A stretch of DNA of 33,745 bases from Longimicrobiales bacterium (GCA_041617355.1 JBFJPA010000001.1:1-33745); one strand, 5' to 3'. Counted from the first letter of the stretch, positions 823 through 19,487 are shown. Notes: generated by a model not told the origin, from the sequence alone. Numbers and translations: made by a program.

Positions 823-878
823 CGGGACACACGCACGCGAGACGTTCGTACGAGACATCCACGCAAGGACGGATCGAG

Positions 879-2939: not shown

Positions 2940-2973
2940 TCGTTCCACCTTTGCACTTCTGCGGAGACGCCCC

Positions 2974-4593: not shown

Positions 4594-4609
4594 TCGTCGA
4601 AGGAACGAC

Positions 4610-6244
4610 ATGCGGCCGATGACCCGCACGCTGGCAACGTTCGCGACCCTGGCCGTCGCGGCATCCTCGCCCGTCGCCGGCCAGGACAGACCCCCGGCCC
4701 CGTCCGATTGGCGCAGCGGCGGGACCTGCTACGAGGTCTTCGTCCGGTCCTTCTACGACAGTGACGGCGATGGCGTGGGCGACCTCGAGGGCCTCATCCA
4801 GAAGCTGGACTACATCAACGACGGGGATGCCGACTCGCTGACGGACCTCGGCGCACAGTGCATCTGGCTCATGCCCATCGCCGTCTCGACCAGCTACCAC
4901 GGCTACGACGTCATCGACTATTACCGCGTCGACCCGCGCTACGGCAGCAACGACGACTTCAAGCGGCTGGTACAGGAAGCCCACCGGCGGGGAATCCGCG
5001 TCATCGTCGACATGGTCATCAACCACGCCTCGAGCGAGCACCCGTTTTTCAAACACGCGCTGCTGCACGCCGACTCGCCGTACCGCGAATGGTTCCGCTG
5101 GTCCGATACACAGGGCCCGCGCAACGAGTGGGGTGGCTACAACTGGCACCGATCGCCCGTCCGCGACGAGTTCTACTACGGCTTCTTCTGGAGCGGCATG
5201 CCCGACCTGAACTGGGAGTCGGCGGCCGTGCGCCAGGAAATGAAGGACGTGGCCACGTTCTGGCTCGAGGAGCTGGGCGCCGACGGGTTCCGGCTGGACG
5301 CGGTCCGGCACCTGATGGAAGACGGCGAGCGCACGGCGAACGTGCCGCGCACGCACGACATGCTGCGGGAATACGCCGCCCACATCCGCGCTGTGGCCCC
5401 GGAGGCCTTCACGATCGGCGAGGTCTTCGACAGCACGGACGTCTTGCTCGCCTATTATCCGGACCAGATGGATGCTTACTTCGCGTTCCAGGTGGCCAAC
5501 GCGACGCTGGAGGCCGTGAGGTCCGGCTCGCCGGCCGGGCTCTTCGACGCCGTGCTCGACCTCCAGCGCGCCGTGCCGAACCACCGCTGGGCGCCGTTCC
5601 TGCGCAACCACGACCAGACTCGCACGCTCACGTTTCTCGAGGGCGACCTGGGCCGGGCCCGCCTGGCGGCCAGCCTGCTGCTCACGTTGCCCGGCGTGCC
5701 CTTCGTCTACTACGGCGAGGAGATCGGGATGAGCGGCGACAAGCCGGATCCCCGGCTGCGCACGCCCATGCACTGGACCCGCGCGCCGGCGGCCGGCTTC
5801 ACGACCGGCGTGCCCTGGGAGCCGCTCCAGCCGGATTCGTTGTCCGCGAATGTCGAGGTCATGAACGGGGACAACGGCTCCATCCTCAACCACTACCGTC
5901 GCCTCATCCACCTGCGCGCCCGCACGCCCGCCCTGGGCGCCGCCGCCGAGCTCGTGCCCCTCACGACCAGCGCAGCGCCGGTCGCGGCGTTCCTGCGCCG
6001 CTCGAACGAGCAGGCCGCCCTCGTCATCGCCAACCTGGGCGAGACCCCACTCCGTGGCGTTGCCGTGTCCTCCGCGGGCCCCGTGCTGCCGCAGGGCCGC
6101 TACACCCCCACGGACCCCCTCGATGGCACGCGCGTCGCACCGCTCCGCATTGCGCGCGATGGCCACATCCGTGGCTACATCCCGTTGGCTGTGTTGCCAC
6201 CCTTGCACGCCTTCGTGCTACCGCTCGGCGTGGACACGCGCTGA
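4610..6244 (+). CDS. GH13 alpha-amylase-family glycosidase (alpha-glucosidase/neopullulanase-like), secreted
   Basis: ORF 4562..6244. GH13 regions are present: GDGVGDLEGLIQKLDYI, RVIVDMVINHAS (region I), GFRLDAVRHL (II), IGEVFD (III), FLRNHDQ (IV). ATG 4610 (MRPMTRTLATFATLAVAASSPVAG, signal-like) is preceded by GAAGGAA. Confidence 0.85.
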   Translation: MRPMTRTLATFATLAVAASSPVAGQDRPPAPSDWRSGGTCYEVFVRSFYDSDGDGVGDLEGLIQKLDYINDGDADSLTDLGAQCIWLMPIAVSTSYHGYDVIDYYRVDPRYGSNDDFKRLVQEAHRRGIRVIVDMVINHASSEHPFFKHALLHADSPYREWFRWSDTQGPRNEWGGYNWHRSPVRDEFYYGFFWSGMPDLNWESAAVRQEMKDVATFWLEELGADGFRLDAVRHLMEDGERTANVPRTHDMLREYAAHIRAVAPEAFTIGEVFDSTDVLLAYYPDQMDAYFAFQVANATLEAVRSGSPAGLFDAVLDLQRAVPNHRWAPFLRNHDQTRTLTFLEGDLGRARLAASLLLTLPGVPFVYYGEEIGMSGDKPDPRLRTPMHWTRAPAAGFTTGVPWEPLQPDSLSANVEVMNGDNGSILNHYRRLIHLRARTPALGAAAELVPLTTSAAPVAAFLRRSNEQAALVIANLGETPLRGVAVSSAGPVLPQGRYTPTDPLDGTRVAPLRIARDGHIRGYIPLAVLPPLHAFVLPLGVDTR

Positions 6245-6282: not shown

Positions 6283-6312
6283 TTGACACTCTCCTCTGGC
6301 TACGGGTATTCT
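6283..6312 (+). promoter_or_regulatory. sigma70-like promoter candidate upstream of the USP/bd-like operon
   Basis: TTGACA at 6283-6288, an 18-nt spacer, then TATTCT at 6307-6312. It lies in a 378-bp non-coding gap and would give a leader of about 300 nt before ATG 6623. Confidence 0.3.
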
Positions 6313-6622
6313 GGCGCGTGTCGCGGCCGGGGCGTCGGTACAACCCGATTCATTCGCCGGCCGCTACGCTTTCCTCGGCTCCCAGGTTACCGGTTTGTCC
6401 GCTCGTGGAGCCGGGCTCGCAGCGTCGAATCACGTGTCGGGGCCTCGTCCCCGCTGACGGATTGAAGTCTCGCAGGACCGAGGTTTCGTCCAATACGACG
6501 CAACTGATGCGATAGACCGCGAGGGTTCTCTCGCCGGCGAGGTGCTTTCTCGCGCCGGCGCGGGCACGCCGTGTGCCCGACGGGAACGCTTCGGTCTCGC
6601 GCAGAACCCGAGCCGAGATCGC

Positions 6623-8692
6623 ATGTATCGCGAAATTTACGTTCCCGTCGACAACTCCGAGTTCTCCCACATCGCGGTCGACCGCGCGATCGAGCTGTGT
6701 CGCAAGAGCGGCGGCCGTCTGACGGGCGGCCACGTGTATGCGGCGCGGCTGCACGACATCCGTTTCCGGCAGCTCGAGACCGGCCTGCCCGCCCGCTTCC
6801 AGACACCCGAAGAGATCAAGCGCCAGCGCAAGATCCACGACAAGCTGATCGAGAAAGGCCTGCAGCTCATCTCCGACTCGTTCCTCGACCAGACGGCGAA
6901 GCGGTGTGCGGCAGCCGACGTGCCGATGCGCCGGCAGTTGCTCGAGGGAATCAACTACGAGGAGATCATCAACGAGGTGAACGGCGGACAGGGCCGGCTG
7001 CCCAGCCTGATCGGCTTCGACCCGAACATCGCGGACAAGTACGACGGCGGCGAGCACGTGCGCGGGGATGTGCGCATGGGTGAGAACGGGCGGCTGATCG
7101 CGGAAGACGAGGATCTCGACGAGAAGCTGGCGGGCACGAGCGACCGCGACTACGACCTGCTCTGCATCGGTGCGCACGGCATTGGCCGGCAGCCGTATTC
7201 GCAGATGGGCGGCGTCGTCTCGCGGGTGCTGCGCGGCATCGAGAAGGATGCGCTGATCGTGCGCAACGGGGCGCCGCTGGCGGGCGGGAAGTTCATGGTC
7301 TGCATCGACGGCTCGGCGTACTCGTACAAGGCGATGCGCATCGGGCTCGAGCTGGCGCGCGAGTACGGCGCGGAGCTGTACGTCTGCTCGGCCTTCGACG
7401 TGGAGTACCACCACGTCGTGTTCGGCAACATCAAGGACGTGCTGTCGGTGCAGGCGTCGAAGGTGTTCAAGTTCGAGGAGCAGGAGGAGCTGCACAACAA
7501 CATCATCGACAAGGGCCTGCTGCGTCTGTGTCAGGCGAACATCAAGCGGGCCGAGGCGATGCGCGCGACGTATGAAGACGTCGTGATGCACACGCAGATC
7601 CTCATTGGCAAGCCCTTCCAGTGCATTCTGCAGTGGGTCGAGGAGGTGCAGCCCACGCTGCTGATCGTGGCGCGCCACGGCAGCCACCGCATCGACGACA
7701 CGGACATCGGCTCGCAGTCGGAGAACCTGTCCCGGCTGGCGGACACGAACGTGCTTCTGGTCGGCACGACGGACGTGCGGCCGGAGGAGATCCCCTGGAT
7801 CGAGGAAGACGGGCAGGCCGGCCTGGAGTGGGCGCCAGAGGCGGAAGTCCGCATCCTGCGCGTGCCACCGTTCGCACTGGGCATCGCGCGCAAGGCGGTC
7901 GAGGAATTCGTCCTCGATAACTACGGTCCCGGCGCGAACGGGACGTACGCCGGCGAAGGCAAGGGGAACGGACGGAACGGCAACGGAGTCGACGGCGACG
8001 GCGCGCCGAAGTCTCTGCCGATGGTGACGAGCGAGCTGCTGGACGAGGCGATCAAGAAGCTGCTGCCGACGCACATGCAGCTGATCATGGGCATCGGCAC
8101 CGCGGAAGAGCTGGCGCTCGCGGAAGTGAAGGCGGAGCAGGCGATGTCTCGCACGGTGGTCGAGGGCAGCGAGGCGGAGGCGGAGCCGGAGGCGGTGATC
8201 ACGGTGAAGTGTCCGTACACGGGCCACGTGCAGACGCGCGCGCGCACGGCCGCGGATCCGGTGGTCTGGACGGAGGAAGCCTTCGAGCGTTTGCGTGCGG
8301 TTCCCCTCATCGCGCGGCCGCTGGCGCGGAATACGGTGGAGCGGTTCGCCCGGGATCACGGCTTCTGGCGGATCACCACGCGCGTGATGGACGAGAACAA
8401 GCAGGCCATGATCGAGGCGGACACCTTCGACATGGACACGATGCTGGTCATGTTCCGAGAACTGCAGACGAAGCAGTTGAAGGCTGCGGCGGAAGGCGTC
8501 GATGGGCTGACGCCCGAGATGCGCCGGTTCATCGAAGAGGCGAAAGCGTCGGGAATCACGCGTTGCCCGATCCGGGACGTGGTGGAGCGTGCGGATGGCT
8601 GTCCGGTCGATCTGCAGACCGTGACGCCGCAGCAGGCGCGGTCCGCCATGGAACGGTTCATGGGTGCGGACGCCGAGGACGGTCGCGACTGA
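6623..8692 (+). CDS. tandem universal-stress-protein (USP) domain protein with two C-terminal PCP_red-like modules
   Basis: ORF 6542..8692; the first ATG with a USP-like N-terminus is 6623 (MYREIYVPVDNSEFSHIAVDRAIEL). USP-1 ends at ..YDLLCIGAHGIGRQPYSQMGGVVSRVLRGIEKDALIV. USP-2 runs KFMVCIDGSAYSYKAMRIGLELA...TLLIVARHGSHRIDDTDIGSQSENLSRLADTNVLLV. Two W-x2-E-A-x3-L-x2-VP...E-x-F modules resembling the BchB/ChlB C-terminal domain (PCP_red) lie at 7823-7926 and 8258-8400. Confidence 0.7.
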   Translation: MYREIYVPVDNSEFSHIAVDRAIELCRKSGGRLTGGHVYAARLHDIRFRQLETGLPARFQTPEEIKRQRKIHDKLIEKGLQLISDSFLDQTAKRCAAADVPMRRQLLEGINYEEIINEVNGGQGRLPSLIGFDPNIADKYDGGEHVRGDVRMGENGRLIAEDEDLDEKLAGTSDRDYDLLCIGAHGIGRQPYSQMGGVVSRVLRGIEKDALIVRNGAPLAGGKFMVCIDGSAYSYKAMRIGLELAREYGAELYVCSAFDVEYHHVVFGNIKDVLSVQASKVFKFEEQEELHNNIIDKGLLRLCQANIKRAEAMRATYEDVVMHTQILIGKPFQCILQWVEEVQPTLLIVARHGSHRIDDTDIGSQSENLSRLADTNVLLVGTTDVRPEEIPWIEEDGQAGLEWAPEAEVRILRVPPFALGIARKAVEEFVLDNYGPGANGTYAGEGKGNGRNGNGVDGDGAPKSLPMVTSELLDEAIKKLLPTHMQLIMGIGTAEELALAEVKAEQAMSRTVVEGSEAEAEPEAVITVKCPYTGHVQTRARTAADPVVWTEEAFERLRAVPLIARPLARNTVERFARDHGFWRITTRVMDENKQAMIEADTFDMDTMLVMFRELQTKQLKAAAEGVDGLTPEMRRFIEEAKASGITRCPIRDVVERADGCPVDLQTVTPQQARSAMERFMGADAEDGRD

Positions 8693-8717
8693 TCTTGGCA
8701 CGTCGGGGAGGATCCGC

Positions 8718-10088
8718 GTGAAGGACGGGTCGGGAGCGCCCGCGACGGTCGCGCCGGTCGGCGACCTGGGTCTCGGTTTTGCCTCGCGCGCCGCCGCTGC
8801 CGGGGAGAACACGCGGACGTACGTGCCGCACGTGGTCGCCTGGAACCTGACGCGCCGCTGCAACCTCGCCTGTGCCCACTGCTACATCGCGGCCGGCGCG
8901 TGGCAATCGACGGCCGACGACCTGCGCACGGACGAGTGCCTGCGCATCGCGGACGAGATCCTCGAGATCAGCCCGGCACCGATGTTCATTCTTTCGGGCG
9001 GCGAACCGCTGCTGCGCGAGGATCTCGAGACGCTCGCGGCGCACATGACGGCGCGCGGCGCCACGGTGGTCGTGGGCACGAACGGGACCCGGCTGACGAC
9101 TTCGCGCATCGCATCGCTGATGAAGGCGGGTGTGACCGGTGTCGCCGTGAGCATCGACTCGCTGGACGCCCGTTACCACGATCGGTTCCGGCACGGCGAA
9201 GGCGCGTTGCAGGACACACTCGAGGCCGTCGAGCGCCTGCGCGAGGCCGGCCTCGATTTCGTCGTGCAGACGACGGTCACGCGCGGCAACCGGGCCGAGC
9301 TTCCGGCGTTGGCGGCGTGGTGCGCAGAACGCGGCGCCGTCTCGTTCAATGTCTACTTCCTGGTCGCGACCGGGCGGGGCGCCGGCATGGGCGGACTCTC
9401 GCCCGCGGAGAACGATGAAGTCCTGGCCGGGCTGCTCACGCTGGAAGAGCGCTACCGCGGCCGGATGCTGGTGCGAGCGAAGTGTCAGCCGCAGATCATG
9501 CGGCACGCGCACGAGCGCGAGGCGAACTCGTCGCTGTTGGACTACGGCACGCGCTGTCCTTGCGGTGTCCACTACTGCCGGATCACGCCGGAAGGCCGGC
9601 TTACGCCGTGTCCGTACACGCCCGTGGAGGCCGGCGACCTGCGCGCGGCCTCGTTCGCCTCAGTCTGGGACCATTCGCCGGTGTTCGCGTCGCTGCGTGC
9701 CAACGCGCTGCAGGGACGGTGCGGCCGCTGCGAGTACCGGAGTGTTTGCGGCGGCTGCCGCGCGCGGGCGTGGGCGGAATCGGGCGACCTGCTCGCCGAA
9801 GATCCGGCGTGTGGCTATGAGCCGCCGGAGGGTCGTCCGCTGGTGCGGCCGGCACGATCGGTCACCTACGGCGCACCGACGGCGAACGAGAGCATGCCGT
9901 GGAGCGATGCCGCGCGCGCCCGCCTGTCGCGCGTGCCCGGCTTCGTGCGCGGCGTCGTCATGGCTCGCATCGAGACGTTCGCGCGCGAACGCGGCTACTC
10001 GGAGATCACGCCCGAGGTCATGGAAGCCGTACGTCGCGAGCTGCCGGTGGACTTTTCGCGCCGCATGCCGTTCTTCCTGCGGCGATAA
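8718..10088 (+). CDS. radical SAM/SPASM-domain enzyme (NirJ/AhbC/AhbD-like architecture) with a C-terminal PCP_red-like module
   Basis: ORF 8664..10088. It has a CX3CX2C cluster motif (NLTRRCNLACAHCY) and a GGEPLL SAM motif. It also has a Cys-rich SPASM-like region (CQPQ..CPCGVHYCRITPEGRLTPCPY...CGRCEYRSVCGGCRARA). The tail reads MPWSDAARARLSRVPGFVRGVVMARIETFARERGYSEITPEVMEAV. The preferred start is GTG 8718, 6 nt after GGGGAGG (8705-8711). GTG 8664 would overlap the upstream gene. Confidence 0.8.
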   Translation: MKDGSGAPATVAPVGDLGLGFASRAAAAGENTRTYVPHVVAWNLTRRCNLACAHCYIAAGAWQSTADDLRTDECLRIADEILEISPAPMFILSGGEPLLREDLETLAAHMTARGATVVVGTNGTRLTTSRIASLMKAGVTGVAVSIDSLDARYHDRFRHGEGALQDTLEAVERLREAGLDFVVQTTVTRGNRAELPALAAWCAERGAVSFNVYFLVATGRGAGMGGLSPAENDEVLAGLLTLEERYRGRMLVRAKCQPQIMRHAHEREANSSLLDYGTRCPCGVHYCRITPEGRLTPCPYTPVEAGDLRAASFASVWDHSPVFASLRANALQGRCGRCEYRSVCGGCRARAWAESGDLLAEDPACGYEPPEGRPLVRPARSVTYGAPTANESMPWSDAARARLSRVPGFVRGVVMARIETFARERGYSEITPEVMEAVRRELPVDFSRRMPFFLRR

Positions 10089-10143
10089 CGGGCTGAACCG
10101 GACGAAGGAGGCATCGCGGGTATGATGCGCTGGGAGGCTGGCC

Positions 10144-11994
10144 ATGAGGGTTGAAACGGCCCGGGCCGCACGGTTGCGTGGCCGCGTGCACGCCATCGCC
10201 GGGCGCGCGCCGCGGTGGGCGCCGTCCGCCACGTTCGCGGCGCTGCTGCTGGCCCTGTTCGCCGCGCCCGGCTTCGCGCAGGAAGCCGCCCGCGAATACG
10301 GTAACTTCCCGGTCATCGGCAGCCGCGCCGCGGTGTGGATCGCCGCCCAGGTACATCTCATGTTCGCGGCGTTCGTGCTGGGCGTGCCGATGTTCGCCGT
10401 CGCAGTGGAAGCGATCGGAATCGTGACCAAGGACGAGCGCTACGACCGGCTGTCCAAGGAGTTCGTCCGGCTGCTGCTCATCGCCTACAGCGCCACCGCC
10501 ATGTGGGGCGCCGTCCTCACCTTCTTCCTGATCACGCTCTACCCCCGGTTCTGGAACCATCTCTCGGAGATCTTCGAGGTCTCCATGTGGATCTACGTGG
10601 GGCTCTTCTTCGTCGAGTCCTTCACGCTCTACCTCTACTACTACGGCTGGGACCGCTGGAAGAAAGGCCGCGCCAAGCTCGGCCACCTCGGCCTCGGCAT
10701 CCTGCTCAACGTATGGGGCACGGCCGTCATGTTCATCGCCGACAGCTGGCTCAGCTACATGATGAGCCCGCCCGCCGACATGACGCCCGACACCTCGCCG
10801 GCCATGGTGCAGGCCTGGAGCGCGATCGCGAACGCGACGTGGATGCCCATCAATATCCACCGCCTCATCGCCAACGTCGTGTTCGGCGGCTCCATCGTCG
10901 CCGGCTACGCCGCGTTCCGCTTCCTGAACGCGAAGACGGACGAAGAGCGCGCGCACTACGACTGGATGGGCTACATCGGCAATTTCATCGCCATTGCCGC
11001 CCTGCTCACCCTCCCGTTCGCCGGGTACTGGCTGGGCCGCGAGATCTATGCGTACAACCAGTCGATGGGCATCACCATGATGGGCGGCTTCATGAGCTGG
11101 CTCTGGATCATCCAGGCCATCCTCATCGGCGTCCTCTTCCTCGCGGCCAACTACTACCTGTGGATCGGGCTGGGCCGCATCCCCGGCGGCGAGCGTTTCG
11201 TGCCCTACACGAAGTGGATGCTGATCCTGCTAGTGCTCGGGGTGATCGTGTGGGCGACGCCCAACACAATGATCGCCGACCGCGGGGAGCTGGCCGCGAT
11301 GGGTGGCACGCACCACCCGTTCCTCGGTGTGCTCGGCGTGATGAGCGCGAAGAACACGGCGGTCAACCTGATGATCCTGACGACGTTCCTGTCGTTCCTG
11401 ATGTACCGCAGGGCGAACAAGGAGCCGACGGTCGACTGGGCGAGGTCCGGCACGATCGTGCAGGGCGGCATCATGGCGATCGCGGCGGCCGTCGTCATCT
11501 TCTTCGGCGTCTACGGCTACTTCGTCTCGGCGATCGTGCGCATCGGCTTCAGCGTCTATCAGGTGGGCGCGGTGCTGTTCACGATCATCGCCGTCACGGT
11601 GATCGACGTGATGCTCTCGCGGGGCGCGACCTCGCGCGGCGAGATCCGCTGGGGCATGATGCCGGAGCGCTCGCAGTACGCGCTGTTCATCCTGGTCGTC
11701 ACGTTCACGTGGCTGATGGGGCTGATGGGCTTCGCGCGCAGCGGCATCCGGCAGCACTGGCACGTCTGGGAAGTGATGCGCGACACGAGTGTGGACGCGG
11801 CGACGCCGGCGCTCGGGTATGCCGGCACGGTGATCAGCACATGCGTCCTGATCTTCCTGCTGATGATCGCGTTCATCTTCTGGCTGGGCGGCCTGGTCGA
11901 GAAGCCGGCCCTGGTCGGCAAGGAAACCATGGTGACGGCACCGGAACCGCGACGCGAGCCGCCGGCCGATCTGGCGCCGGCGACGGGCGACTGA
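10144..11994 (+). CDS. cytochrome bd subunit I (CydA)-like membrane protein, non-canonical (no Q-loop, about 13-14 TM helices)
   Basis: 616 aa. The helix-1 His context AAQVHLMFAAFVLGVPMFAVAVEAIG resembles the CydA His19 region. FFVESFTLYLYYYGWDRW resembles E. coli FFLESTFVGLFFFGWDRL. INIHRLIANVVFGGSIVAGYAAFRFL resembles the His186 helix. All inter-helix loops are short. GGGAGG lies 6 nt upstream of ATG 10144. Confidence 0.75.
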   Translation: MRVETARAARLRGRVHAIAGRAPRWAPSATFAALLLALFAAPGFAQEAAREYGNFPVIGSRAAVWIAAQVHLMFAAFVLGVPMFAVAVEAIGIVTKDERYDRLSKEFVRLLLIAYSATAMWGAVLTFFLITLYPRFWNHLSEIFEVSMWIYVGLFFVESFTLYLYYYGWDRWKKGRAKLGHLGLGILLNVWGTAVMFIADSWLSYMMSPPADMTPDTSPAMVQAWSAIANATWMPINIHRLIANVVFGGSIVAGYAAFRFLNAKTDEERAHYDWMGYIGNFIAIAALLTLPFAGYWLGREIYAYNQSMGITMMGGFMSWLWIIQAILIGVLFLAANYYLWIGLGRIPGGERFVPYTKWMLILLVLGVIVWATPNTMIADRGELAAMGGTHHPFLGVLGVMSAKNTAVNLMILTTFLSFLMYRRANKEPTVDWARSGTIVQGGIMAIAAAVVIFFGVYGYFVSAIVRIGFSVYQVGAVLFTIIAVTVIDVMLSRGATSRGEIRWGMMPERSQYALFILVVTFTWLMGLMGFARSGIRQHWHVWEVMRDTSVDAATPALGYAGTVISTCVLIFLLMIAFIFWLGGLVEKPALVGKETMVTAPEPRREPPADLAPATGD

Positions 11995-12004
11995 GGAGGC
12001 GACG

Positions 12005-12823
12005 ATGGGCGGAACGAACCTGCGGGTGTTCGGCGTCGTCGTCGCGACGGTGCTGTTCTACGCCCTGCTGGCCAACGCGATTCCCCAGGTCCGATCGGAA
12101 GTGCCGCAGGAGCTCACGCTGGGCGCCGAGGCGACGACCGACCAGCTGGTCGCGGCGGGCGAGCAGCTCTACGCGGGCGCGGGCGGCTGCACGGCCTGCC
12201 ACGGGCTCGGCACACGTGCGCCCAACCTGCTCACGGATGAAGGTGGGACCGGCCAGATCGGGGCGCGCTGCACGAACCGCGTGGCCGGCGAGACGTGCGA
12301 GCAATACCTCTGGAAATCGATGACGGAGCCGAACGTCTTTGTCGTCGAGGGCTACCAGCCTATCATGCCGGACATGCGGCGGACGATTTCCGAAGGACAG
12401 ATCTGGACACTCGTCGCATACCTGCAGAGTCTGGGCGGCGAGGTGACGGTGACGGGCGCACAGGTCGCCGAAGCACAGGCCGCGTCGGCCAGCGCGGGCG
12501 GCGGAGCGGCGGCGGCCGGCGGCGCGGCGGGCGGCGCCGCGGCGTATGCCGGCGGCAGCACCGACCCGCAGGAGCTGATCACGGCCGGCGCGTGCAGCGC
12601 GTGTCACGTGTTGAACGGCCAGGGCGGCCCCATCGGCCCGCCGTTCGACGGCATGGGCGCCCGACTCGACGAGGCGCGCATCCGCAGGGGCATCATCGAG
12701 CCGAACGCCGACACGGCGCAGGGCTTCGAGGCGATGGCCGGCACGATGCCCGCCAACTTCGGCACACAGATGAACGCGGCGCAGCTGGAAGCGCTGGTCC
12801 GGTTTCTCGCCGGCCTGAGGTGA
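12005..12823 (+). CDS. membrane-anchored dihaem c-type cytochrome
   Basis: N-terminal TM helix (LRVFGVVVATVLFYALLANAI) and two CxxCH motifs (GGCTACHG, GACSACHV) separated by an Ala/Gly-rich linker. GAGGAGG overlaps the upstream stop, with a 10-nt gap to ATG 12005. Confidence 0.8.
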   Translation: MGGTNLRVFGVVVATVLFYALLANAIPQVRSEVPQELTLGAEATTDQLVAAGEQLYAGAGGCTACHGLGTRAPNLLTDEGGTGQIGARCTNRVAGETCEQYLWKSMTEPNVFVVEGYQPIMPDMRRTISEGQIWTLVAYLQSLGGEVTVTGAQVAEAQAASASAGGGAAAAGGAAGGAAAYAGGSTDPQELITAGACSACHVLNGQGGPIGPPFDGMGARLDEARIRRGIIEPNADTAQGFEAMAGTMPANFGTQMNAAQLEALVRFLAGLR

Positions 12824-12837
12824 GGAGGCGCACCGTC

Positions 12838-13635
12838 ATGCGAAAGCTCAAGCACCCGTTCTGGCAGACCCTGGTCCTGCTCGTCGTGTCCTGGGTCCTG
12901 ATCGAGTTCGGCATCGCATATCTGCCGCCGCTGCTCGGCATGCGCAGCGCGCCCGTTCCGAACAGCGTCGTGCTGCAATACCTGGTGACGGTGCTGGTCG
13001 GACTCCTGCTCTATGTGAGCGCCGACATGGCCCGCTGGAAGGAGTTCAAGCAACCGATCCGCGCCGCCATGGTCGATGCCGACAAGCGCTGGGTCCGTCT
13101 CGCGCTGCTCGTGCTCATCCCCGGCCTCGTCGGCTTCGTCGCGTTCGACCGCGTTCGCCCGAAGGTGTCGGCGCCGCCGTCACTGCGCTCGATCCATCCG
13201 GCGCCGCCCACGTCGATCACGTTCCAGGGCCGGACCATCAACCTGGCGACTGTGCAGAACCCGCTGCGCTCGCGCGGCACGATCGAAGAGCACTACGAGA
13301 CCGGCAAGCGCCTCTACACGCAGAACTGCATGCCCTGCCACGGCGACTACCTGGACGGCCGCGGCCACTACGCACACGGCTTCAGCCCGACGCCGCTCAG
13401 CTTCCAGGACAACGGCACGATCGCGCAGCTGTCGGAGAGCTTCGTCTTCTGGCGCGTCGCCAAGGGCGGCGTCGGCCTGCCCCGTGAGGGCACGCCGTGG
13501 AACTCCGCCATGCCGGCCTGGGAGGACTTCCTGACCGAAGATGAGATCTGGGCCGTGATCCTGTTTCTCTACGAGCAGACGCCCTGGGAGCCGCGCGTGA
13601 TGGAAGCGCACGGCGCCGAGGCGGGAGGTCACTGA
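12838..13635 (+). CDS. membrane-bound monohaem c-type cytochrome (about 3 N-terminal TM helices)
   Basis: Lies in the frame of ORF 12295..13635. ATG 12838 sits 9 nt after GAGGAGG (12822-12828). Hydrophobic N-terminus (FWQTLVLLVVSWVLIEFGIAYL.., VLQYLVTVLVGLLLYV, WVRLALLVLIPGLVGFVAF), then a single CxxCH (NCMPCHGDY) and ..WNSAMPAWEDFLTEDEIWAVILFLY. Confidence 0.75.
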   Translation: MRKLKHPFWQTLVLLVVSWVLIEFGIAYLPPLLGMRSAPVPNSVVLQYLVTVLVGLLLYVSADMARWKEFKQPIRAAMVDADKRWVRLALLVLIPGLVGFVAFDRVRPKVSAPPSLRSIHPAPPTSITFQGRTINLATVQNPLRSRGTIEEHYETGKRLYTQNCMPCHGDYLDGRGHYAHGFSPTPLSFQDNGTIAQLSESFVFWRVAKGGVGLPREGTPWNSAMPAWEDFLTEDEIWAVILFLYEQTPWEPRVMEAHGAEAGGH

Positions 13636-15209
13636 TGCGCACGCGCGTGAGACTGACCCCCGCCCTCGTGTGCGCGGCGCTGCTCTCGCCAGCCGCCGCT
13701 GCCGGGCAGGATGCGAACCACCCCGGCAAGCCGGTCTACGATCGCTGGTGTGCGAGCTGCCACGGCGTCGACGGCCGCGGCCAGGGCGATGCGGCCGACT
13801 GGATGCTGCCCCGCCCTCGCGACTTCACGCAGGCGCTCTACCAGGTGCGCACGACGAACACCGGCTCGTTGCCGACCGACTCCGACATCCTGAAGGTCAT
13901 CGACGAAGGCATGCCCGGCACGGCCATGCCGGGCTGGCGGACGGCGCTGTCGTCGACTGAAAAACAGAACCTCGTCTCCTACCTGAAGACGTTCTCTCGG
14001 TTCTTCGAAACGGACACGCCGGATGTCATCCAATTCGGACGTGCGCCGGGCGTGAACGACGCAGTGCTCGCCGAAGGCGCCGAGGTCTACCGCGCGCTCG
14101 AGTGCTTCAAGTGTCACGGCGAGGCGGGTCGGGGCGATGGCGAGTCGGCGCCGACGCAGGAGGACGACAACGGCTTCCCGATCCGGCCGGCGGACCTGTC
14201 GCAGCCCTGGTACTTCAACGGCGGCGGCACGGTCGAGGACATCTACCGGCGGCTGCGCACGGGCCTGGACGGCACGCCGATGCCGTCCTACAGCGACGCG
14301 CTGGCCGCCAACATCGTCACGGACGAACAACTGTGGGCCGTCGCCCATTACGTGAAGAGCCTCGGTGGCGAGACGCCGCGCGTGCGCGAGGTCGTCGAGG
14401 CCCGCCGCGCTGCCAATGGCCTGCCCGCATCGCCGACCGACTCGGCGTGGGCAACCGTTCAGCGGTTCTGGATCCCGCTCGTCGGCCAGATCATCGTCAG
14501 GCCGCGCTGGTTCGCGCCGGCCGTGACCGGCGTGTGGGTCCAGGCCGTTCACGACGGCACGGACCTCGTGATGCGGCTGAGCTGGAGCGACCGTTCGAAC
14601 AGCCCGGACCCGGTCTGGGGCGACTGGCGAGCCGGCGTCACGCGCATCATGGCACCCCACGAAGACCCGGCAGCCGCCGCAGGCGATTCCGTTGCGGCGC
14701 CCGCGACGCCGGACGGCATCGCGGTATGGTTCCCGCGCACACCACCGACGGGCATGGATCGCCCGTACTTCTTCATGGGCAGCACGCGCGAGCCGGTCTA
14801 TGCGTGGCACTGGCAGAGCACGACGGGCGTGCGCGAGGCGCGCGGCCGCGGGCCGGGCGTGCTGGAGTCGCTCGGCGGTCCGGGCAACGGCCTCACGGGC
14901 GAAGCCGTCTTCGAGGCCGGCCAGTGGCACCTCATGGTGCGCCGGCCGCTCGCCGCGACCGATTCCGCCAACGCGTTGTCGTTCCCGGCCGGACAGGCCA
15001 TCCCAATGGCGTTTTTCGCCTGGGACGGCGACAACGGCGAGAGCGGGACGAAGGGCTCGCTCAGCACGTGGTACTTCCTGCAGCTCACGGAGCCGACGCC
15101 GGCGACGTCGTATGCGACGCCGCTCATCGCGGTCCTGCTGACGGCCGGCTTCGGCGTCTTCGTCGTCGGCCGCGCGCAGCGCCGCGAACGGGAGCAGCAG
15201 GGCGATTGA
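13635..15209 (+). CDS. dihaem cytochrome c fused to an ethylbenzene-dehydrogenase-like (EB_dh) haem-binding domain, with a C-terminal TM anchor
   Basis: Signal-like N-terminus (MRTRVRLTPALVCAALLSPAAAAGQD) and CxxCH twice (WCASCHGVDGRG, CFKCHGEAGRG). The EB_dh-like pattern follows: W..IPLVGQ...VWVQAVHDG.DLVMRLSWSD...IAVWFP...PYFFMG...PVYAWHW...GQWHLMVRRPL...PMAFFAWDGDNGE.G.KGS.STWYFLQL. C-terminal TM helix LIAVLLTAGFGVFVV. The start overlaps the upstream stop (TGATG, 13633-13637). GGGAGG at 13623-13628. Confidence 0.75.
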   Translation: MRTRVRLTPALVCAALLSPAAAAGQDANHPGKPVYDRWCASCHGVDGRGQGDAADWMLPRPRDFTQALYQVRTTNTGSLPTDSDILKVIDEGMPGTAMPGWRTALSSTEKQNLVSYLKTFSRFFETDTPDVIQFGRAPGVNDAVLAEGAEVYRALECFKCHGEAGRGDGESAPTQEDDNGFPIRPADLSQPWYFNGGGTVEDIYRRLRTGLDGTPMPSYSDALAANIVTDEQLWAVAHYVKSLGGETPRVREVVEARRAANGLPASPTDSAWATVQRFWIPLVGQIIVRPRWFAPAVTGVWVQAVHDGTDLVMRLSWSDRSNSPDPVWGDWRAGVTRIMAPHEDPAAAAGDSVAAPATPDGIAVWFPRTPPTGMDRPYFFMGSTREPVYAWHWQSTTGVREARGRGPGVLESLGGPGNGLTGEAVFEAGQWHLMVRRPLAATDSANALSFPAGQAIPMAFFAWDGDNGESGTKGSLSTWYFLQLTEPTPATSYATPLIAVLLTAGFGVFVVGRAQRREREQQGD

Positions 15210-15363
15210 TGTTCCCACGCCGCTCGCGCGGCGCGCCAGACAACAGGAACGATCGGCACGTCCCGCCGTGATGGCGCGACGGATGCTTGCCTTTCACTGC
15301 CCCGTCTCGTACGGCGGACCCGTGCGTGACGTGGCAACACAACCCAACCGACTCGGAGGCAGT

Positions 15364-16221
15364 ATGCGTATCGCTCGACGACTCACCGGCTCGATGACAG
15401 TCCTGTCCCTCGCAGCCGCATTCGCATGCGGCGGCGGCGACAGCGGCGAGGCGGGGGGCGGCGAGGCCGCCACGCCCGCTGCGGCGCCCGCCGCAGTCGC
15501 CGATGCCGGCACGATCACGGGAAGCATCGACTTCGCGGGTGAAGCGCCCGCGAATGCGACGGTCGATATGAGCGCGGAGGCGCCCTGTGCCGCCAAACAC
15601 ACGACGACGCCCACACGTGAGACGGTCATCGCGAATGGCGGCAAGCTGACCAACGTCTTCGTCTACATCAAGGAAGGCATCACGGGTGACTATCCGGCGC
15701 CGTCCACGCCGGTCAACGTGAACCAGGACGGCTGCGTCTACATCCCGCACGTCGTGGGCGCACAGGTCGGCCAGACCGTCGCCTTTCAGAACAGTGACGG
15801 CCTGTTGCACAACATCAAGGCCGCTCCGACCAACAACCGTACGTTCAACATCAGCCAGCCGAACAACATGACGACGAACCGCTCGTTCAGCGCGGCCGAG
15901 GTCATGATCCCCGTCCAGTGCGACGTGCACGGCTGGATGGAGATGTACATCGGTGTGGTTGCGCACCCCTACTTCGCGGTGAGCGGCACGGACGGCTCCT
16001 TCCGGATCGGCAACGTTCCGCCCGGCACCTACACACTGGAGGCGTGGCACGAGAAGTACGGCGTGCAGACGCAGCAGGTGACGGTGGACCCGAACGGGAC
16101 CGCGACCGTCACGTTCGGCTACAGCGCTTCCATGGCGGCGAACGCGGTCGTGCCACTGGGTGCGCCGCTCGATCCGCACGACCACCACGGGACCGTCGCC
16201 CCGCGCACGGGCGACCGCTAG
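15364..16221 (+). CDS. lipoprotein cupredoxin (type-1 copper, amicyanin-like ligand spacing) fused to a CarboxypepD_reg-like beta-sandwich
   Basis: ORF 15268..16221. ATG 15364 follows GGAGG. Lipobox-like LSLAAAFAC|GGG. Candidate Cu ligands are LLHNI (His codon 15808-15810) and C-D-V-H-G-W-M (15919-15939). The C-terminal part reads GTDGSFRIGNVPPGTYTLEAWHEKYG. Confidence 0.7.
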   Translation: MRIARRLTGSMTVLSLAAAFACGGGDSGEAGGGEAATPAAAPAAVADAGTITGSIDFAGEAPANATVDMSAEAPCAAKHTTTPTRETVIANGGKLTNVFVYIKEGITGDYPAPSTPVNVNQDGCVYIPHVVGAQVGQTVAFQNSDGLLHNIKAAPTNNRTFNISQPNNMTTNRSFSAAEVMIPVQCDVHGWMEMYIGVVAHPYFAVSGTDGSFRIGNVPPGTYTLEAWHEKYGVQTQQVTVDPNGTATVTFGYSASMAANAVVPLGAPLDPHDHHGTVAPRTGDR

Positions 16222-16257
16222 TCAACCGATCGCACTCGCGGAGCGCGAGGAGGAGAC

Positions 16258-17022
16258 ATGGACGGGTTCTGGCGGATGCCGCAGAACATCTCGACGTTCG
16301 GCGCCGACATCGACCGGATGTTCTTTATCATCGCGGTCATTACGGGCGTCGTCTTCGTCCTCGTCGAGGCCCTGCTGATCTACTACCTGATCAAGTACCG
16401 CGGGAAGGAGGGCCGCAAGGCTCGCTTCACTCACGGCAACAGCACGATGGAGATCATGTGGACCGTGGCCACGGCGATCATCGTGGTCATCGTCGGCGTC
16501 ATGAGCCGCGGCCTCTGGCTCGACATCAAGGACCCCCGGCGATTCCCCGACGCGGGCATCGAGCTCCGCATCACGGCCAAGCAGTTCGAATGGAACGTGA
16601 CGTATCCGGGCGCGGACGGGCAGCTGGACACCGCCGACGACTTCGTCAAACGGAACCAGCTGCACGTCCCCGTCAACACCAAGGTCCACGTCCAACTGCA
16701 GTCCGAGGACGTGATCCACTCCTTCTACCTCCCGGAGCTCCGCCTCAAGCAGGACGCCGTTCCCGGGATGAGCATTCCCGCCTGGTTCGAGGCGACGACG
16801 CCCGGCGAATACACCATCGGCTGCGCGGAGCTGTGCGGGACCGGCCACTATCGAATGAAGGGCACGATGACCGTGCTCGCGGCTGCGGATTGGGACACGT
16901 GGTACGGCCAGGAGATGCAGGCCGTCGCCAGCGCCGGCGGCAACTCGGCGCCGCTGGCCGGCGCCGCTGCGCCGGCCGAGCCGACGCCGGCCGCCACACC
17001 GACCGCCACCCACGCGCATTGA
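16258..17022 (+). CDS. coxB: cytochrome c oxidase subunit II (CuA; no fused cytochrome c domain)
   Basis: Two N-terminal TM helices, VIHSFYLPELRLKQDAVPG, and the CuA motif CAELCGTGHYRM. Ala/Pro-rich C-terminal tail with no CxxCH. GAGGAGGAG lies upstream of ATG 16258. Confidence 0.9.
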   Translation: MDGFWRMPQNISTFGADIDRMFFIIAVITGVVFVLVEALLIYYLIKYRGKEGRKARFTHGNSTMEIMWTVATAIIVVIVGVMSRGLWLDIKDPRRFPDAGIELRITAKQFEWNVTYPGADGQLDTADDFVKRNQLHVPVNTKVHVQLQSEDVIHSFYLPELRLKQDAVPGMSIPAWFEATTPGEYTIGCAELCGTGHYRMKGTMTVLAAADWDTWYGQEMQAVASAGGNSAPLAGAAAPAEPTPAATPTATHAH

Positions 17023-17038
17023 ACGAGGAACGACGACC

Positions 17039-18814
17039 ATGAGCACTGTCGCGGTGCCCCACGAAGCACACGCCGTCGCACACGAGCACCACGAGCAGAT
17101 CCCGTGGATCCGGCGCTACGTGTTCTCGACCGACCACAAGGTCATCGGCATTCAGTTCTTGTTCATGAGCCTGTTCTTCCTGCTCTTTGGCGGGCTCCTC
17201 GCCATGGCCATGCGCTGGCAGCTCGCCTGGCCGACCGACCCCAACATGCCCCTGCCCGGCGGCAACCTGCTGCCCGAGACCATGGTCAACCAGGGCGTCA
17301 TGTTGCCGGAGTTCTACAATGCCCTCGTCACCATGCATGGCACGATCATGGTCTTCTTCGCGATCATGCCGCTGCTCGTGGGCGTCTGGGCAAACTACCT
17401 GATTCCGCTGCAGATCGGGGCGCCCGACATGGCGTTCCCTCGATTGAACATGATCTCGTTCTGGATGGCCGCCTCGGCGGGCATCCTGATGATGGCGAGT
17501 TTCTTCGTGGTCGGCGGCGCCGCTAGCGCCGGCTGGACCGGCTACGCACCACTCAGTACGAGCGACGTCTACAGCGGCGTCAAACTCGGCCAGCAGCTTT
17601 GGTGTGTGAGCCTCGTTGTCCTCGGGTTCTCTTCCTTGATAGGCGCCGTGAACTACATCACGACGCTCATCAACATGCGCGCGCCCGGCTTGACCTGGTT
17701 CCGTCTGCCGCTCTCGACGTGGGCCTTGTTCGTGACGTCCGTGCTGATCCTGCTCGCTGTGCCGATCCTGGCCGGCGGCCTGATCATGCTCTTCTTCGAC
17801 ATCACCATCGGCACCTCGTTCTTCCGGCCCGAGGGCGGCGGCCAGCCGATCCTGTGGCAGCATCTGTTCTGGTTCTTCGGCCACCCCGAGGTCTACATCC
17901 TGATCCTGCCGTCCATGGGCTTCGTTTCCGATGTCCTCGCGAATGGCGCGCGCAAGCCGATCTTCGGCTACGCCGCGATGGTCTGGGCGATCGTCGGGAT
18001 CGGCTTCATCGGCTGGATCGTGTGGGGCCACCACATGTTCATGAGCGGCATGAACCCGATGCTGGGCGGGTTCTTCATGATCACGACGCTGATCATCGCG
18101 GTGCCCTCGGCGATCAAGACGTTCAACTGGCTGGGCACCCTGTGGGGCGGCAACATCCGCTTCCACACGCCCATGCTCTACGCGCTCGGCTTCGTCTCGC
18201 TGTTCGTCATCGGCGGGCTGTCCGGCGTGTTCCTGGCGGCGGGACCGGTCGACATCCCGCTGCACGACACGTACTTCGTAGTCGCCCACATCCACTACGT
18301 GCTGGTGGGCGGCAGCCTGTTCGGCATTTTCGCGGCGATCACGTTCTGGTATCCGAAGATGTTCGGCCGACTGATGAGCGAGAAGCTGGGCGTGCTGCAC
18401 TTCGCGACCACGTTCATCTTCTTCAACCTCGTCTTCTTTCCGATGCACATGCTGGGCACGGGCGGGATGATGCGCCGGCTCTACGATCCGACGCAGTATC
18501 CGAACCTGGCGGCGCAGCAAGACACGAACGTCTTCATCACGATCAATGCGCTGCTGCTGTTCGCGGCCCAGCTGATCTTCGCGTTCAACTTCCTGTGGAG
18601 CCTGAAGAAGGGGAAGAAATCGGACGCGAACCCGTGGGAGGCGAATTCGCTCGAATGGACTGCGCCCTCGCCGCCGCCACACGGAAACTGGGGCGGCGTG
18701 ACGCCGACGGTCTATCGCGGACCGTATGAATACAGCGCGCCGGAGACGGAGAGGGACTACTGGCTGCAGACGGAACCGGGCAGGGGCGGACAGACCGCCC
18801 CGGGCGCACACTGA
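17039..18814 (+). CDS. ctaD: cytochrome c oxidase subunit I (A-family haem-copper oxidase)
   Basis: 591 aa. Signatures: TDHKVIGIQFL, WFFGHPEVYILILP, VWGHHMF, HDTYFVVAHIHYVL. Confidence 0.95.
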   Translation: MSTVAVPHEAHAVAHEHHEQIPWIRRYVFSTDHKVIGIQFLFMSLFFLLFGGLLAMAMRWQLAWPTDPNMPLPGGNLLPETMVNQGVMLPEFYNALVTMHGTIMVFFAIMPLLVGVWANYLIPLQIGAPDMAFPRLNMISFWMAASAGILMMASFFVVGGAASAGWTGYAPLSTSDVYSGVKLGQQLWCVSLVVLGFSSLIGAVNYITTLINMRAPGLTWFRLPLSTWALFVTSVLILLAVPILAGGLIMLFFDITIGTSFFRPEGGGQPILWQHLFWFFGHPEVYILILPSMGFVSDVLANGARKPIFGYAAMVWAIVGIGFIGWIVWGHHMFMSGMNPMLGGFFMITTLIIAVPSAIKTFNWLGTLWGGNIRFHTPMLYALGFVSLFVIGGLSGVFLAAGPVDIPLHDTYFVVAHIHYVLVGGSLFGIFAAITFWYPKMFGRLMSEKLGVLHFATTFIFFNLVFFPMHMLGTGGMMRRLYDPTQYPNLAAQQDTNVFITINALLLFAAQLIFAFNFLWSLKKGKKSDANPWEANSLEWTAPSPPPHGNWGGVTPTVYRGPYEYSAPETERDYWLQTEPGRGGQTAPGAH

Positions 18815-18839
18815 ACCCCTCACGGAGGAGCGGATCGAC

Positions 18840-19487
18840 ATGAGCACGGCAACTGCCGCGACGTTGGACCGACCCGGATCGGGGTTCGGCGTCTACAACC
18901 TGAAGCTGGGCATGTGGGTGTTCCTGCTGTCCGAGGTCATGTTCTTCACCGGTCTCATCGGCGCCTACATCATCCTTCGCTTCGCGCGGCCCGAGCAGTT
19001 CGCGGAGCCAGGCATCGTACTGAACGTGCCGCTGACCGCGTTGAACACCTTCATCCTGATCTGCAGCTCCGTGACAATGGTGAAGGCGTTCGCCGAGATC
19101 GAGCAGGGCAACCAGAAGGGCCTGAAGATGTATCTGCTCGCGACCGTGGCGCTGGGCCTGGTCTTTCTCGGTATCCAGGCCTGGGAATACACGATTCTCG
19201 TGCATGAAGGATTCGTGCCGATGGCGGAAAGTTATGCGGCGCATGGCCGGGCGGGCGGCGACGCGGTGTTGGGCGGGCCGCTTTATGGCGCGACGTTCTA
19301 TACCATGACGGGCTTCCATGGCACGCACGTGTCGATCGGCGTACTGTGTCTGATCTTCACGACGATCCAGGCGTTCCGCGGGCGCTACACCGCGAGCAAC
19401 ACCGGCGGCGTCGAGATCATGGGCTTGTACTGGCACTTCGTCGACCTGGTCTGGATCATCCTGTTCACGATCGTCTACCTGATCTGA
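18840..19487 (+). CDS. ctaE: cytochrome c oxidase subunit III
   Basis: Lies in the frame of ORF 18726..19487. ATG 18840 follows GGAGGAG (18825-18831). Signatures: LGMWVFLLSEVMFFTGLIGAY, FYTMTGFHGTHVSIG, LYWHFVDLVWIILFTIVYL. Confidence 0.9.
   Translation: MSTATAATLDRPGSGFGVYNLKLGMWVFLLSEVMFFTGLIGAYIILRFARPEQFAEPGIVLNVPLTALNTFILICSSVTMVKAFAEIEQGNQKGLKMYLLATVALGLVFLGIQAWEYTILVHEGFVPMAESYAAHGRAGGDAVLGGPLYGATFYTMTGFHGTHVSIGVLCLIFTTIQAFRGRYTASNTGGVEIMGLYWHFVDLVWIILFTIVYLI

Follow-up and report, generated by a model that had tools for sequence, protein, structure and literature searches.

In the cytochrome bd subunit CydA, the quinol-site residues Lys252 and Glu257 are carried by the Q-loop, Met393 is the sixth ligand of haem b558, and Glu445 is a ligand of haem b595. 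The “bd-like” oxidases of Nitrospina, Nitrospira and Kuenenia, as described by Lucker et al. (2013), have 14 helices, keep the haem b ligands and contain no quinol residues; membrane helices replace the Q-loop, and the genes lie with those for an alternative NxrC and for a mono- and a dihaem cytochrome c. The clade named OR-N2 by Murali, Gennis and Hemp (2021), which is also known as the NIDE0901-like “cytochrome bd-like oxidase” of Nitrospira (Lucker et al. 2010), has 14 helices and operons that contain several cytochromes c and an ebdC homologue; the same authors recorded OR-N enzymes in Gemmatimonadota. The OR-N2 row of Supplementary Table 6 of Murali et al. (2021) gives histidines at CydA positions 19, 126 and 186, tyrosine at Glu99, glutamate at Glu107, M/N at the Met393 position, serine or alanine at Glu445, a tryptophan, and the tyrosines Y114/Y116. 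That cytochrome c rather than quinol is the electron donor is a published inference for OR-N enzymes. The present work concerns a gene of this kind at positions 10144-11994 of a stretch of 33,745 nucleotides from a Longimicrobiales bacterium (GCA_041617355.1 JBFJPA010000001.1:1-33745), which is referred to below as the window; all coordinates are window positions, and the features of the gene and of its cluster all lie on the + strand.

The open reading frame (ORF) at 10144-11994 encodes a CydA homologue of 616 amino acids that is almost certainly an OR-N2 subunit, or “cytochrome bd-like” subunit of the NIDE0901 type; the assignment draws on a match to the Pfam family Cyt_bd_oxida_I (PF01654), on Foldseek comparisons of a structural model, and on 51% identity over 540 residues to an OR-N2 gene from Nitrospirota. 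The bd-like feature itself is a rediscovery of published observations, and the protein is a Gemmatimonadota member of a known family. What is new here is the genomic setting, a conserved ten-gene Gemmatimonadota cluster that joins the bd-like module to a radical SAM gene and an aa3 oxidase, and the occurrence in the window lineage of an asparagine at position 374, where histidine is otherwise nearly invariant. As regards function, the reading that we favour, with a confidence only a little better than even, is that the protein is a cytochrome c-fed O2 reductase.

The OR-N2 signature fits position by position, with His71, Tyr151, Glu158, His181, His239, Met400/Asn404, Ser533, Trp539 and Tyr165/Tyr167 in the corresponding places, and the helix count of 13 plus an N-terminal hydrophobic helix compares with the published OR-N2 count of 14. 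The Nitrospirota gene with 51% identity, which contains the motifs TPH, THHP and HWHV, is the second bd-like gene of a contig from a metagenome-assembled genome (L083; CAYYLQ010000002.1, 10001-20405) on which the order is cytochrome c, bd-like, cytochrome c, Rieske, cytochrome b, hypothetical, bd-like, cytochrome c, cytochrome c, EB_dh, cytochrome c. Clusters of this type, in which OR-N1 and OR-N2 flank the Rieske and cytochrome b genes, have been proposed to represent a Nitrospira supercomplex of complexes III and IV. The window protein resembles the OR-N2 proteins of Nitrospira, Nitrospina and anammox bacteria in the lack of a quinol site, in its residue signature, in the YxY that follows the glutamate, in the THHP and HWHV motifs, and in the signal peptide. 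The OR-N1 proteins and other Nitrospirota and Nitrospinota paralogues share with it the 13-14 helices and the residues His71, Tyr151, His181, His239, Arg532, Arg536 and His540, but the identity to the OR-N1-context group is only 36-38%, and these proteins carry Leu/Gln in place of the His-His pair and Tyr, Phe, Asp or Asn at position 538. OR-N1 adjoins Rieske and cytochrome b genes, and the other paralogues, such as P0373 and P0294 of Nitrospirota, are stand-alone genes.

Judged by sequence comparison, the homology of the ORF to CydA is far above chance. The match to PF01654 has an E-value of 4e-20 and a score of 72.2 bits, where the gathering cutoff is 26.2; a phmmer search of the PDB with the bd-like protein matched only CydA chains; a profile built from 115 homologues found the CydA proteins of Geobacillus, Mycobacterium and E. 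coli in the PDB with E-values of 2e-16 to 4e-6; and hhalign against E. coli CydA (MG1655) gave probabilities of 93.7-95.4%. The 115-sequence set consists of 32 Gemmatimonadota and 83 Nitrospirota homologues, the latter in two groups (49 + 34), and a second set, of 29 diverse full-length representatives, was used to assess conservation across a family that comprises more than 7,500 matches in 90% clusters and 1,218 clusters at 50% identity, 230 with E <= 1e-30. Sequence similarity to CydA is detectable for residues 66-266 only, the hhalign alignment ending at 266.

The initial annotation had singled out a histidine in helix 1, the glutamate of an FFVESF segment and the histidine of an INIHRL helix as elements retained from CydA. 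The alignments are in register, so that these three elements occupy homologous positions, and the possibility that the putative ligand residues are unrelated to His19 and His186 of CydA is not borne out. His71 (10354-10356) aligns with E. coli CydA His19 (Geobacillus His21), a ligand of the active-site haem, and is conserved in 115/115 sequences and in 27/29 representatives; Glu158 (10615-10617) aligns with the proton-channel glutamate Glu107 (115/115 and 22/29); and His239 (10858-10860) aligns with the haem b558 ligand His186, is found in 27/29 representatives, and is followed by Arg240, both residues being invariant in the 115 sequences. To these may be added His181 (10684-10686), which aligns with CydA His126 and is likewise invariant in the larger set and present in 28/29 representatives. 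The Glu99 position is taken in the PDB-profile alignment by Tyr151 (10594-10596), invariant in the 115 sequences, found in 26/29 representatives, and equivalent to Y183 of the OR-N2 signature. The codon coordinates quoted in the initial annotation for His71, Glu158, His239, His390/391 and His538/540 are all correct. The residues invariant in the 115 sequences are His71, Glu89, Tyr151, Glu158, Tyr165, Lys178, His181, His239, Arg240, Pro392, Arg532, Arg536 and His540. The equivalents of Glu99 and Glu445 have been lost, Tyr151 and, in an alignment that is weak but consistent, Ser533 standing in their places.

An AlphaFold2 model computed on the 115-sequence alignment (predicted local distance difference test score, pLDDT, 84.6; predicted template modelling score, pTM, 0.84) has 13 transmembrane helices after an N-terminal helix that spans residues 26-45, in agreement with the total of about 13-14 given in the initial annotation. 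In a Foldseek search with this model, the ten matches with E < 1e-3 were all to CydA or AppC (probability 1.00, target-normalised template modelling score 0.51-0.62), and CydB chains came next, weakly. The successive loops after helix 5 are 4, 1, 1, 3, 27, 9, 2, 16 and 22 residues long; the bd-like protein therefore has no Q-loop, as had been proposed from the spacing of its helices. When a Q-loop with Lys252 and Glu257 was looked for at the expected place, the sixth transmembrane helix of the core shared with CydA, which is helix 266-304 of the model, proved to be followed by a turn of about one residue. The helix count and the topology of the model suggest that the place of the Q-loop is taken by about four additional transmembrane helices.

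The ATG at 10144, which is the first in-frame start codon downstream of a stop, is preceded at a distance of 6 nt by the Shine-Dalgarno-like sequence GGGAGG (10132-10137, read directly from the sequence). The segment of about 45 residues that precedes helix 1 (10144-10278) is signal-like, as had been noticed, with an Arg-rich start, a hydrophobic stretch which forms the model helix at 26-45, and the sequence GFA|QEA; the pattern of A-x-A followed by acidic residues recurs as FAQEA in Gemmatimonadota relatives and as AWAEEA (AWA|EEA) in the Nitrospirota OR-N2 gene. An N-terminus of this type would put the mature N-terminus of the bd-like protein in the periplasm, like that of CydA. When the N-terminus is taken as a signal or anchor, the cytoplasmic loops contain 9 Lys + Arg and the periplasmic loops contain 4, and the model fits a topology that is the same as that of CydA, with the loops 372-398 (TPN...THHP) and 535-556 (RQHWHVW) predicted to be periplasmic, on the side of the CydA haems.

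The eight C-terminal helices showed no internal repeat in hhalign comparisons, no likeness to CydB and none to the N-terminal half. Their sole hhalign match, which is weak, pairs residues 536-586 with CydA 448-498, and the same pairing is obtained in HMMER alignments to three different CydA structures. On this weak but consistent sequence evidence, CydA helices 8-9 and the GRQPW motif would have their equivalents in the last two helices and the RQHWH loop between them. The segment Arg532-Ser533-Gly-Ile-Arg536-Gln-His538-Trp539-His540 (11737-11763) appears in these weak, concordant alignments as the counterpart of the CydA sequence AEYGRQPWA (E. coli 444-452), with Ser533 in place of the haem b595 ligand Glu445 and with Arg536-Gln-His538-Trp539-His540 overlying Arg-Gln-Pro-Trp. 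No significant hhalign alignment spans the region of CydA Met393. Met400 and His391 are candidates for the ligand at this position; Met400 belongs to the segment Met400-Ser-Ala-Lys403-Asn404 (11341-11355) at the periplasmic start of helix 9, in which Met400 and Lys403 are found in 27/29 representatives, and it is a candidate stand-in for Met393 by analogy with the published OR-N2 table (M430/N434).

The initial annotation had also drawn attention to two histidine clusters in loops, and had suggested that the extra histidines could bind an additional haem or metal. Both clusters, His390-His391 of THHP (11311-11316, before helix 9) and His538/His540 of the HWH motif (11755-11763), lie in the predicted topology in periplasmic loops, but their members differ in how widely they are kept. 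His391 is histidine in 22/29 representatives, in 32/32 Gemmatimonadota and in 49/49 sequences of one Nitrospirota group, whereas the second group has leucine there throughout (34/34); at position 390, histidine occurs in 6/29 representatives and 31/32 Gemmatimonadota, and in the Nitrospirota OR-N2 gene. His540 is histidine in 25/29 representatives and invariant in the 115 sequences; His538 is found in 9/29 representatives, in 32/32 Gemmatimonadota and again in the Nitrospirota OR-N2 gene, and is otherwise variable. By these counts, one histidine in each cluster (His391, His540) is a feature of the family and the other (His390, His538) a feature of particular lineages. A role as haem or metal ligands is plausible for the strongly conserved, periplasm-facing His391 and His540, and less so for His390 and His538, which are confined to certain lineages.

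A third conserved periplasmic histidine position, in the “TPH” motif, is occupied in the window protein by Asn374 (AAC, 11263-11265). Of the aligned sequences, 82/83 from Nitrospirota and 31/32 from Gemmatimonadota have histidine here, and the one Gemmatimonadota exception is the window protein. A sequencing error was considered and ruled out: the exact window protein occurs on 8 contigs, and Asn374 is also present in a variant that is 94% identical (P0509), so that the change is real; it is found in P0510 as well. If His374 is a cofactor ligand, the species from which the window derives has altered or lost that ligand.

The genomic setting was analysed by a locus search from a 12-sequence alignment, and the best 80 genome loci, all from Gemmatimonadota (Longimicrobiales, Gemmatimonadales and Palauibacter, with 69-84% identity), were examined; synteny is given as the number of loci in which a gene is present over the number of eligible loci, that is, those whose contig reaches far enough. 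In the window, the cluster occupies 6283-19487, with all ten genes on the same strand and with intergenic overlaps or gaps of no more than 58 nt, and the order is Usp-PCP_red, radical SAM-PCP_red, bd-like, three cytochromes c, a CarboxypepD_reg lipoprotein, COX2, COX1 and COX3. The three cytochrome c genes that follow the bd-like gene encode a membrane-anchored dihaem cytochrome c with the motifs CTACH and CSACH (12005-12823; 70/70 loci), a polytopic membrane monohaem cytochrome c with the motif CMPCH (12835-13635, the start being GTG 12835 or ATG 12838; 68/68), and, with a membrane anchor at its C-terminus, a dihaem cytochrome c that is joined to an EB_dh haem b domain of the EbdC/NxrC type (13635-15209; Pfam EB_dh and NCBIfam DMSO_red_II_gam; 62/62). 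This last gene has a homologue in the EB_dh gene of the Nitrospirota contig. The oxidase genes are those for cytochrome c oxidase subunit II, which carries a CuA motif but is not fused to a cytochrome c domain (16258-17022; 59/59), for haem-copper oxidase subunit I with the motifs GHPEVY, GHHMF and AHIHYV (17039-18814; 56/56), and for cytochrome c oxidase subunit III (18726-19487; 55/55).

Between the cytochromes and the oxidase lies a gene for a lipoprotein-like protein with a CarboxypepD_reg domain (15268-16221; 58/59 loci), in which the pattern His181...Cys218-x2-His221-x2-Met224 is invariant in 60/60 homologues. The pattern H...C-x2-H-x2-M has the ligand spacing of amicyanin-type blue copper sites, and the protein is possibly a blue-copper (cupredoxin) carrier; the single-sequence AlphaFold model of the putative cupredoxin part (15490-16218) has a pLDDT of 33 and leaves the fold unconfirmed. 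The cluster opens with a gene for universal stress protein domains and two PCP_red (BchB C-terminal) domains (6542-8692; Pfam; 60/60 loci) and one for a radical SAM/SPASM protein with a C-terminal PCP_red domain (8664-10088; Pfam; 76/78), which most resembles the haem b synthase AhbD and NirJ2 and scores 284 bits in NCBIfam, under the cutoff of 500. The domain content of these two genes hints at dedicated tetrapyrrole processing, and it is a side possibility that the AhbD/NirJ-like protein supplies a modified haem for the bd-like module. A promoter-like TTGACA-18-TATTCT precedes the cluster (6283-6312; consensus scan alone), while promoter and terminator predictions inside it are not credible, all terminator-like sites falling within coding sequence. 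Upstream of the cluster, window 819-6244 contains genes for a GH97 protein, a sodium:solute symporter and an alpha-amylase-family protein, and is a starch/maltodextrin uptake block that bears no relation to the respiratory cluster.

The locus thus shares with the OR-N2 operons of Nitrospira the association with several cytochromes c and an ebdC/nxrC homologue, and differs from them in several respects. Gemmatimonadota is a phylum of mostly heterotrophs, and the host, a Longimicrobiales-like member of it, is no nitrite oxidiser; there is no nearby OR-N1 paralogue or Rieske/cytochrome b gene; the module sits amid genes for the AhbD/NirJ-like radical SAM protein, the Usp-PCP_red protein and the aa3 oxidase; EB_dh forms a single protein with two cytochrome c domains; and the TPH histidine is replaced by asparagine. 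The comparison with canonical CydA/AppC (qOR1-3; PDB 6rko, 7oy2, 5doq) shows a shared fold, shared helices 1-5 with the equivalents of His19, Glu107, His126 and His186, a periplasmic N-terminus, haem positions on the periplasmic side, and an RQxW motif on the final helix pair. Unlike CydA, however, the bd-like protein lacks the Q-loop, Lys252, Glu257, Glu99 and Glu445, has four more helices, and has cytochromes c as its partners. Neither cydB nor cydX was found beside the bd-like gene, and no second CydA/B-like gene turned up elsewhere in the window or, for the 80 loci, at a distance of up to 10 kb. A reading of the gene as part of a canonical CydAB oxidase, which is what the database naming of close homologues implies, thus failed on the Q-loop, on Glu99, on Glu445 and on cydB, so that the name “cytochrome ubiquinol oxidase subunit I” given to these homologues is misleading.

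The initial annotation had concluded that electrons do not enter the protein from quinol. This interpretation is reasonable, agrees with the published inference and is in part supported by the sequence evidence: the Q-loop is absent, the three cytochrome c genes accompany the bd-like gene in every eligible locus, and in one homologue, P0121 (889 aa, 58% identical to the bd-like protein), the bd-like protein is fused end to end with a homologue of the downstream dihaem cytochrome c. Residues 617-886 of P0121 match the product of 12005-12823, including its membrane anchor, with an E-value of 2e-33, and this fusion is direct comparative support for the dihaem cytochrome c as a physical partner of the bd-like protein; P0125 and P0131 are among further homologues that carry C-terminal CxxCH motifs as natural cytochrome c fusions. 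The eight C-terminal helices, however, for which no functionally known counterpart exists, could contain another quinol site.

If the bd-like protein is a cytochrome c-fed O2 reductase, the complex would consist of this protein and the three membrane-anchored cytochromes c with their five haem c, together with the haem b domain of the EbdC/NxrC type. From the periplasmic haem chain, electrons would pass to the haem bound by His239 and then to a catalytic haem at His71. The lost carboxylates Glu99 and Glu445 would be replaced by residues on the periplasmic side, of which His540 is the likeliest and His391 or Met400 a further possibility, with His540 probably substituting for the Glu445 ligand, and O2 would be reduced with cytoplasmic protons delivered along the Glu158/His181 path, which would generate a membrane potential. 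The enzyme would in effect be a cytochrome c:O2 oxidoreductase built on a bd scaffold and, in Gemmatimonadota, co-expressed with a conventional aa3 oxidase. The conservation pattern is consistent with such a role, His71, Glu158, His181, His239, Arg240, Arg532, Arg536 and His540 being invariant in 115 sequences from two phyla. In addition, some aerobic Nitrospirales have no other oxidase, and their NIDE0901-like OR-N2 protein has been taken to be the terminal oxidase (PMC12342949, PMC6606698, PMC10839748).

Several considerations weigh against an oxidase role. Two terminal oxidases side by side in an operon would be unusual, while operons that combine complex III with complex IV are common. The canonical dihaem-site residues Glu99 and Glu445 are missing, and the distal ligand of the His239 haem has no assigned residue, Met400 and His391 being candidates. 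The loops that bear the histidine clusters are low-confidence parts of the model, with pLDDT of about 50-65. The OR-N1 paralogue, which is thought to pair with OR-N2 in Nitrospirales, was not found within 10 kb of the gene in the 80 Gemmatimonadota loci. Finally, as PMC12342949 and PMC10839748 state, none of these proteins has so far been purified or assayed.

The alternative that survives best, although we consider it unlikely, is that the module is a complex III-like feeder, in which the bd-like protein would act together with the cytochromes c and the EbdC-like subunit to oxidise menaquinol, at a novel site formed by the inserted or C-terminal helices, and the electrons would run through haem b, haem c and possibly the blue-copper protein to the downstream aa3 oxidase, the whole acting as a quinol:cytochrome c oxidoreductase. 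Such an arrangement would account for the gene order, since in all eligible loci coxBAC adjoins the bd-like module in the same direction, with tiny gaps, and for a subunit II without a cytochrome c domain of its own. The operon that encodes alternative complex III (ACIII) and a caa3 oxidase in Flavobacterium johnsoniae (PDB 6btm) similarly has a membrane module with multihaem cytochrome c directly upstream of a haem-copper oxidase. The ACIII membrane subunits ActC/F, unlike the bd-like protein, are NrfD-like and contain no membrane haem, and the window module has no iron-sulfur or molybdopterin-like subunit; a test for NrfD-like and Fe-S components gave only a marginal and negligible Foldseek match to ActC (6btm_C, E 0.05, TM 0.2) and no Fe-S subunit in the cluster.

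The proposal that the module feeds the aa3 oxidase also draws on a survey of 326 Gemmatimonadota genomes (PMC9426454), in which caa3 was found in 74%, petB in 23% and ACIII in fewer than 10%, and whose authors suggested the existence of novel complex III modules; against this, the low complex III counts may reflect the incompleteness of metagenome-assembled genomes and annotation by KEGG alone. In Data Set S4 of the same survey, the KEGG cydA orthologue is present in 173/326 genomes and cydB in 95/326, and from this difference the reported 53% prevalence of “cytochrome bd oxidase” in the phylum probably includes orphan bd-like genes of the present kind. An “alternative complex III” role for bd-like proteins was itself raised by Lucker et al. 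(2013). The bd-like protein has, however, no recognisable quinol-binding residues, and the invariant cytoplasmic proton path through Glu158/His181 and the His19-type site would be needless for the oxidation of quinol on the periplasmic side; moreover, the 51%-identical Nitrospirota orthologue adjoins a Rieske/cytochrome b complex, in hosts that need an oxidase and not a second complex III.

A further explanation, and an improbable one, is the original proposal for Nitrospira, in which the His-His, H-x-H and TPH histidines bind a CuB-like copper near a high-spin haem, so that the protein would have a haem-copper site acquired by convergence. Haem-copper-like haem and CuB ligands have been proposed for the Nitrospira bd-like protein since 2010, as related in PMC6606698 and PMC8026999, and, according to PMC8026999, none of the haem and CuB ligand residues known from haem-copper oxidases is missing from one of the Nitrospira bd-like variants, while in its sister variants two of these residues are Gln and Phe. 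The Gln, at a CuB histidine, and the Phe, at a high-spin haem histidine, correspond to positions 390 and 538 here, which means that the two histidine clusters are the haem-copper-like residues noted before. The motifs THHP, HWHV and TPH are found in the Nitrospirota OR-N2 gene, and the first two resemble GHHMF and AHIHYV of the COX1 protein encoded in the window. The fold is nevertheless that of CydA and not of COX1, for the bd-like protein has no COX1 Pfam match and no haem-copper oxidase occurs among its Foldseek matches. The HH and H-x-H motifs are present but are modelled in loops, whereas the histidines of haem-copper oxidases sit inside helices; His390 and His538 vary across the family; the window protein has asparagine at His374, the candidate third copper ligand; and there is no copper-chaperone evidence specific to the bd-like protein.

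Least probable of all is that the protein is a haem-containing membrane anchor or electron sink which links a periplasmic molybdoenzyme to the membrane or quinone pool, the EbdC/NxrC-like subunit docking an enzyme of the type II DMSO-reductase family encoded elsewhere, a role that has been proposed in nitrite oxidisers and anammox bacteria and that has in its favour the EB_dh/DMSO_red_II_gam domain and the occurrence of this set of genes alongside NXR in Nitrospira, Nitrospina and Kuenenia (Lucker et al. 2013; PMC6606698), but against which stand the lack of any molybdoenzyme gene among the Pfam-scanned ORFs of the 33.7 kb window, the aa3 oxidase as conserved neighbour in all the Gemmatimonadota loci, and the fusion of EB_dh with a pair of cytochrome c domains, as would suit a simple electron carrier.

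The OR-N “bd-like oxidases” are the presumed terminal oxidases of globally important nitrifiers. The Gemmatimonadota cluster provides a second setting, in organisms that are not nitrifiers, in which a role as an oxidase can be weighed against a role as a complex III-like feeder. It is doubtful, though conceivable, that the Gemmatimonadota module represents a third, unrecognised kind of quinol:cytochrome c oxidoreductase which feeds the co-transcribed aa3 oxidase; if this were true, it would explain the presence, in most genomes of the phylum, of cytochrome c oxidases without a recognisable bc1 complex or ACIII.

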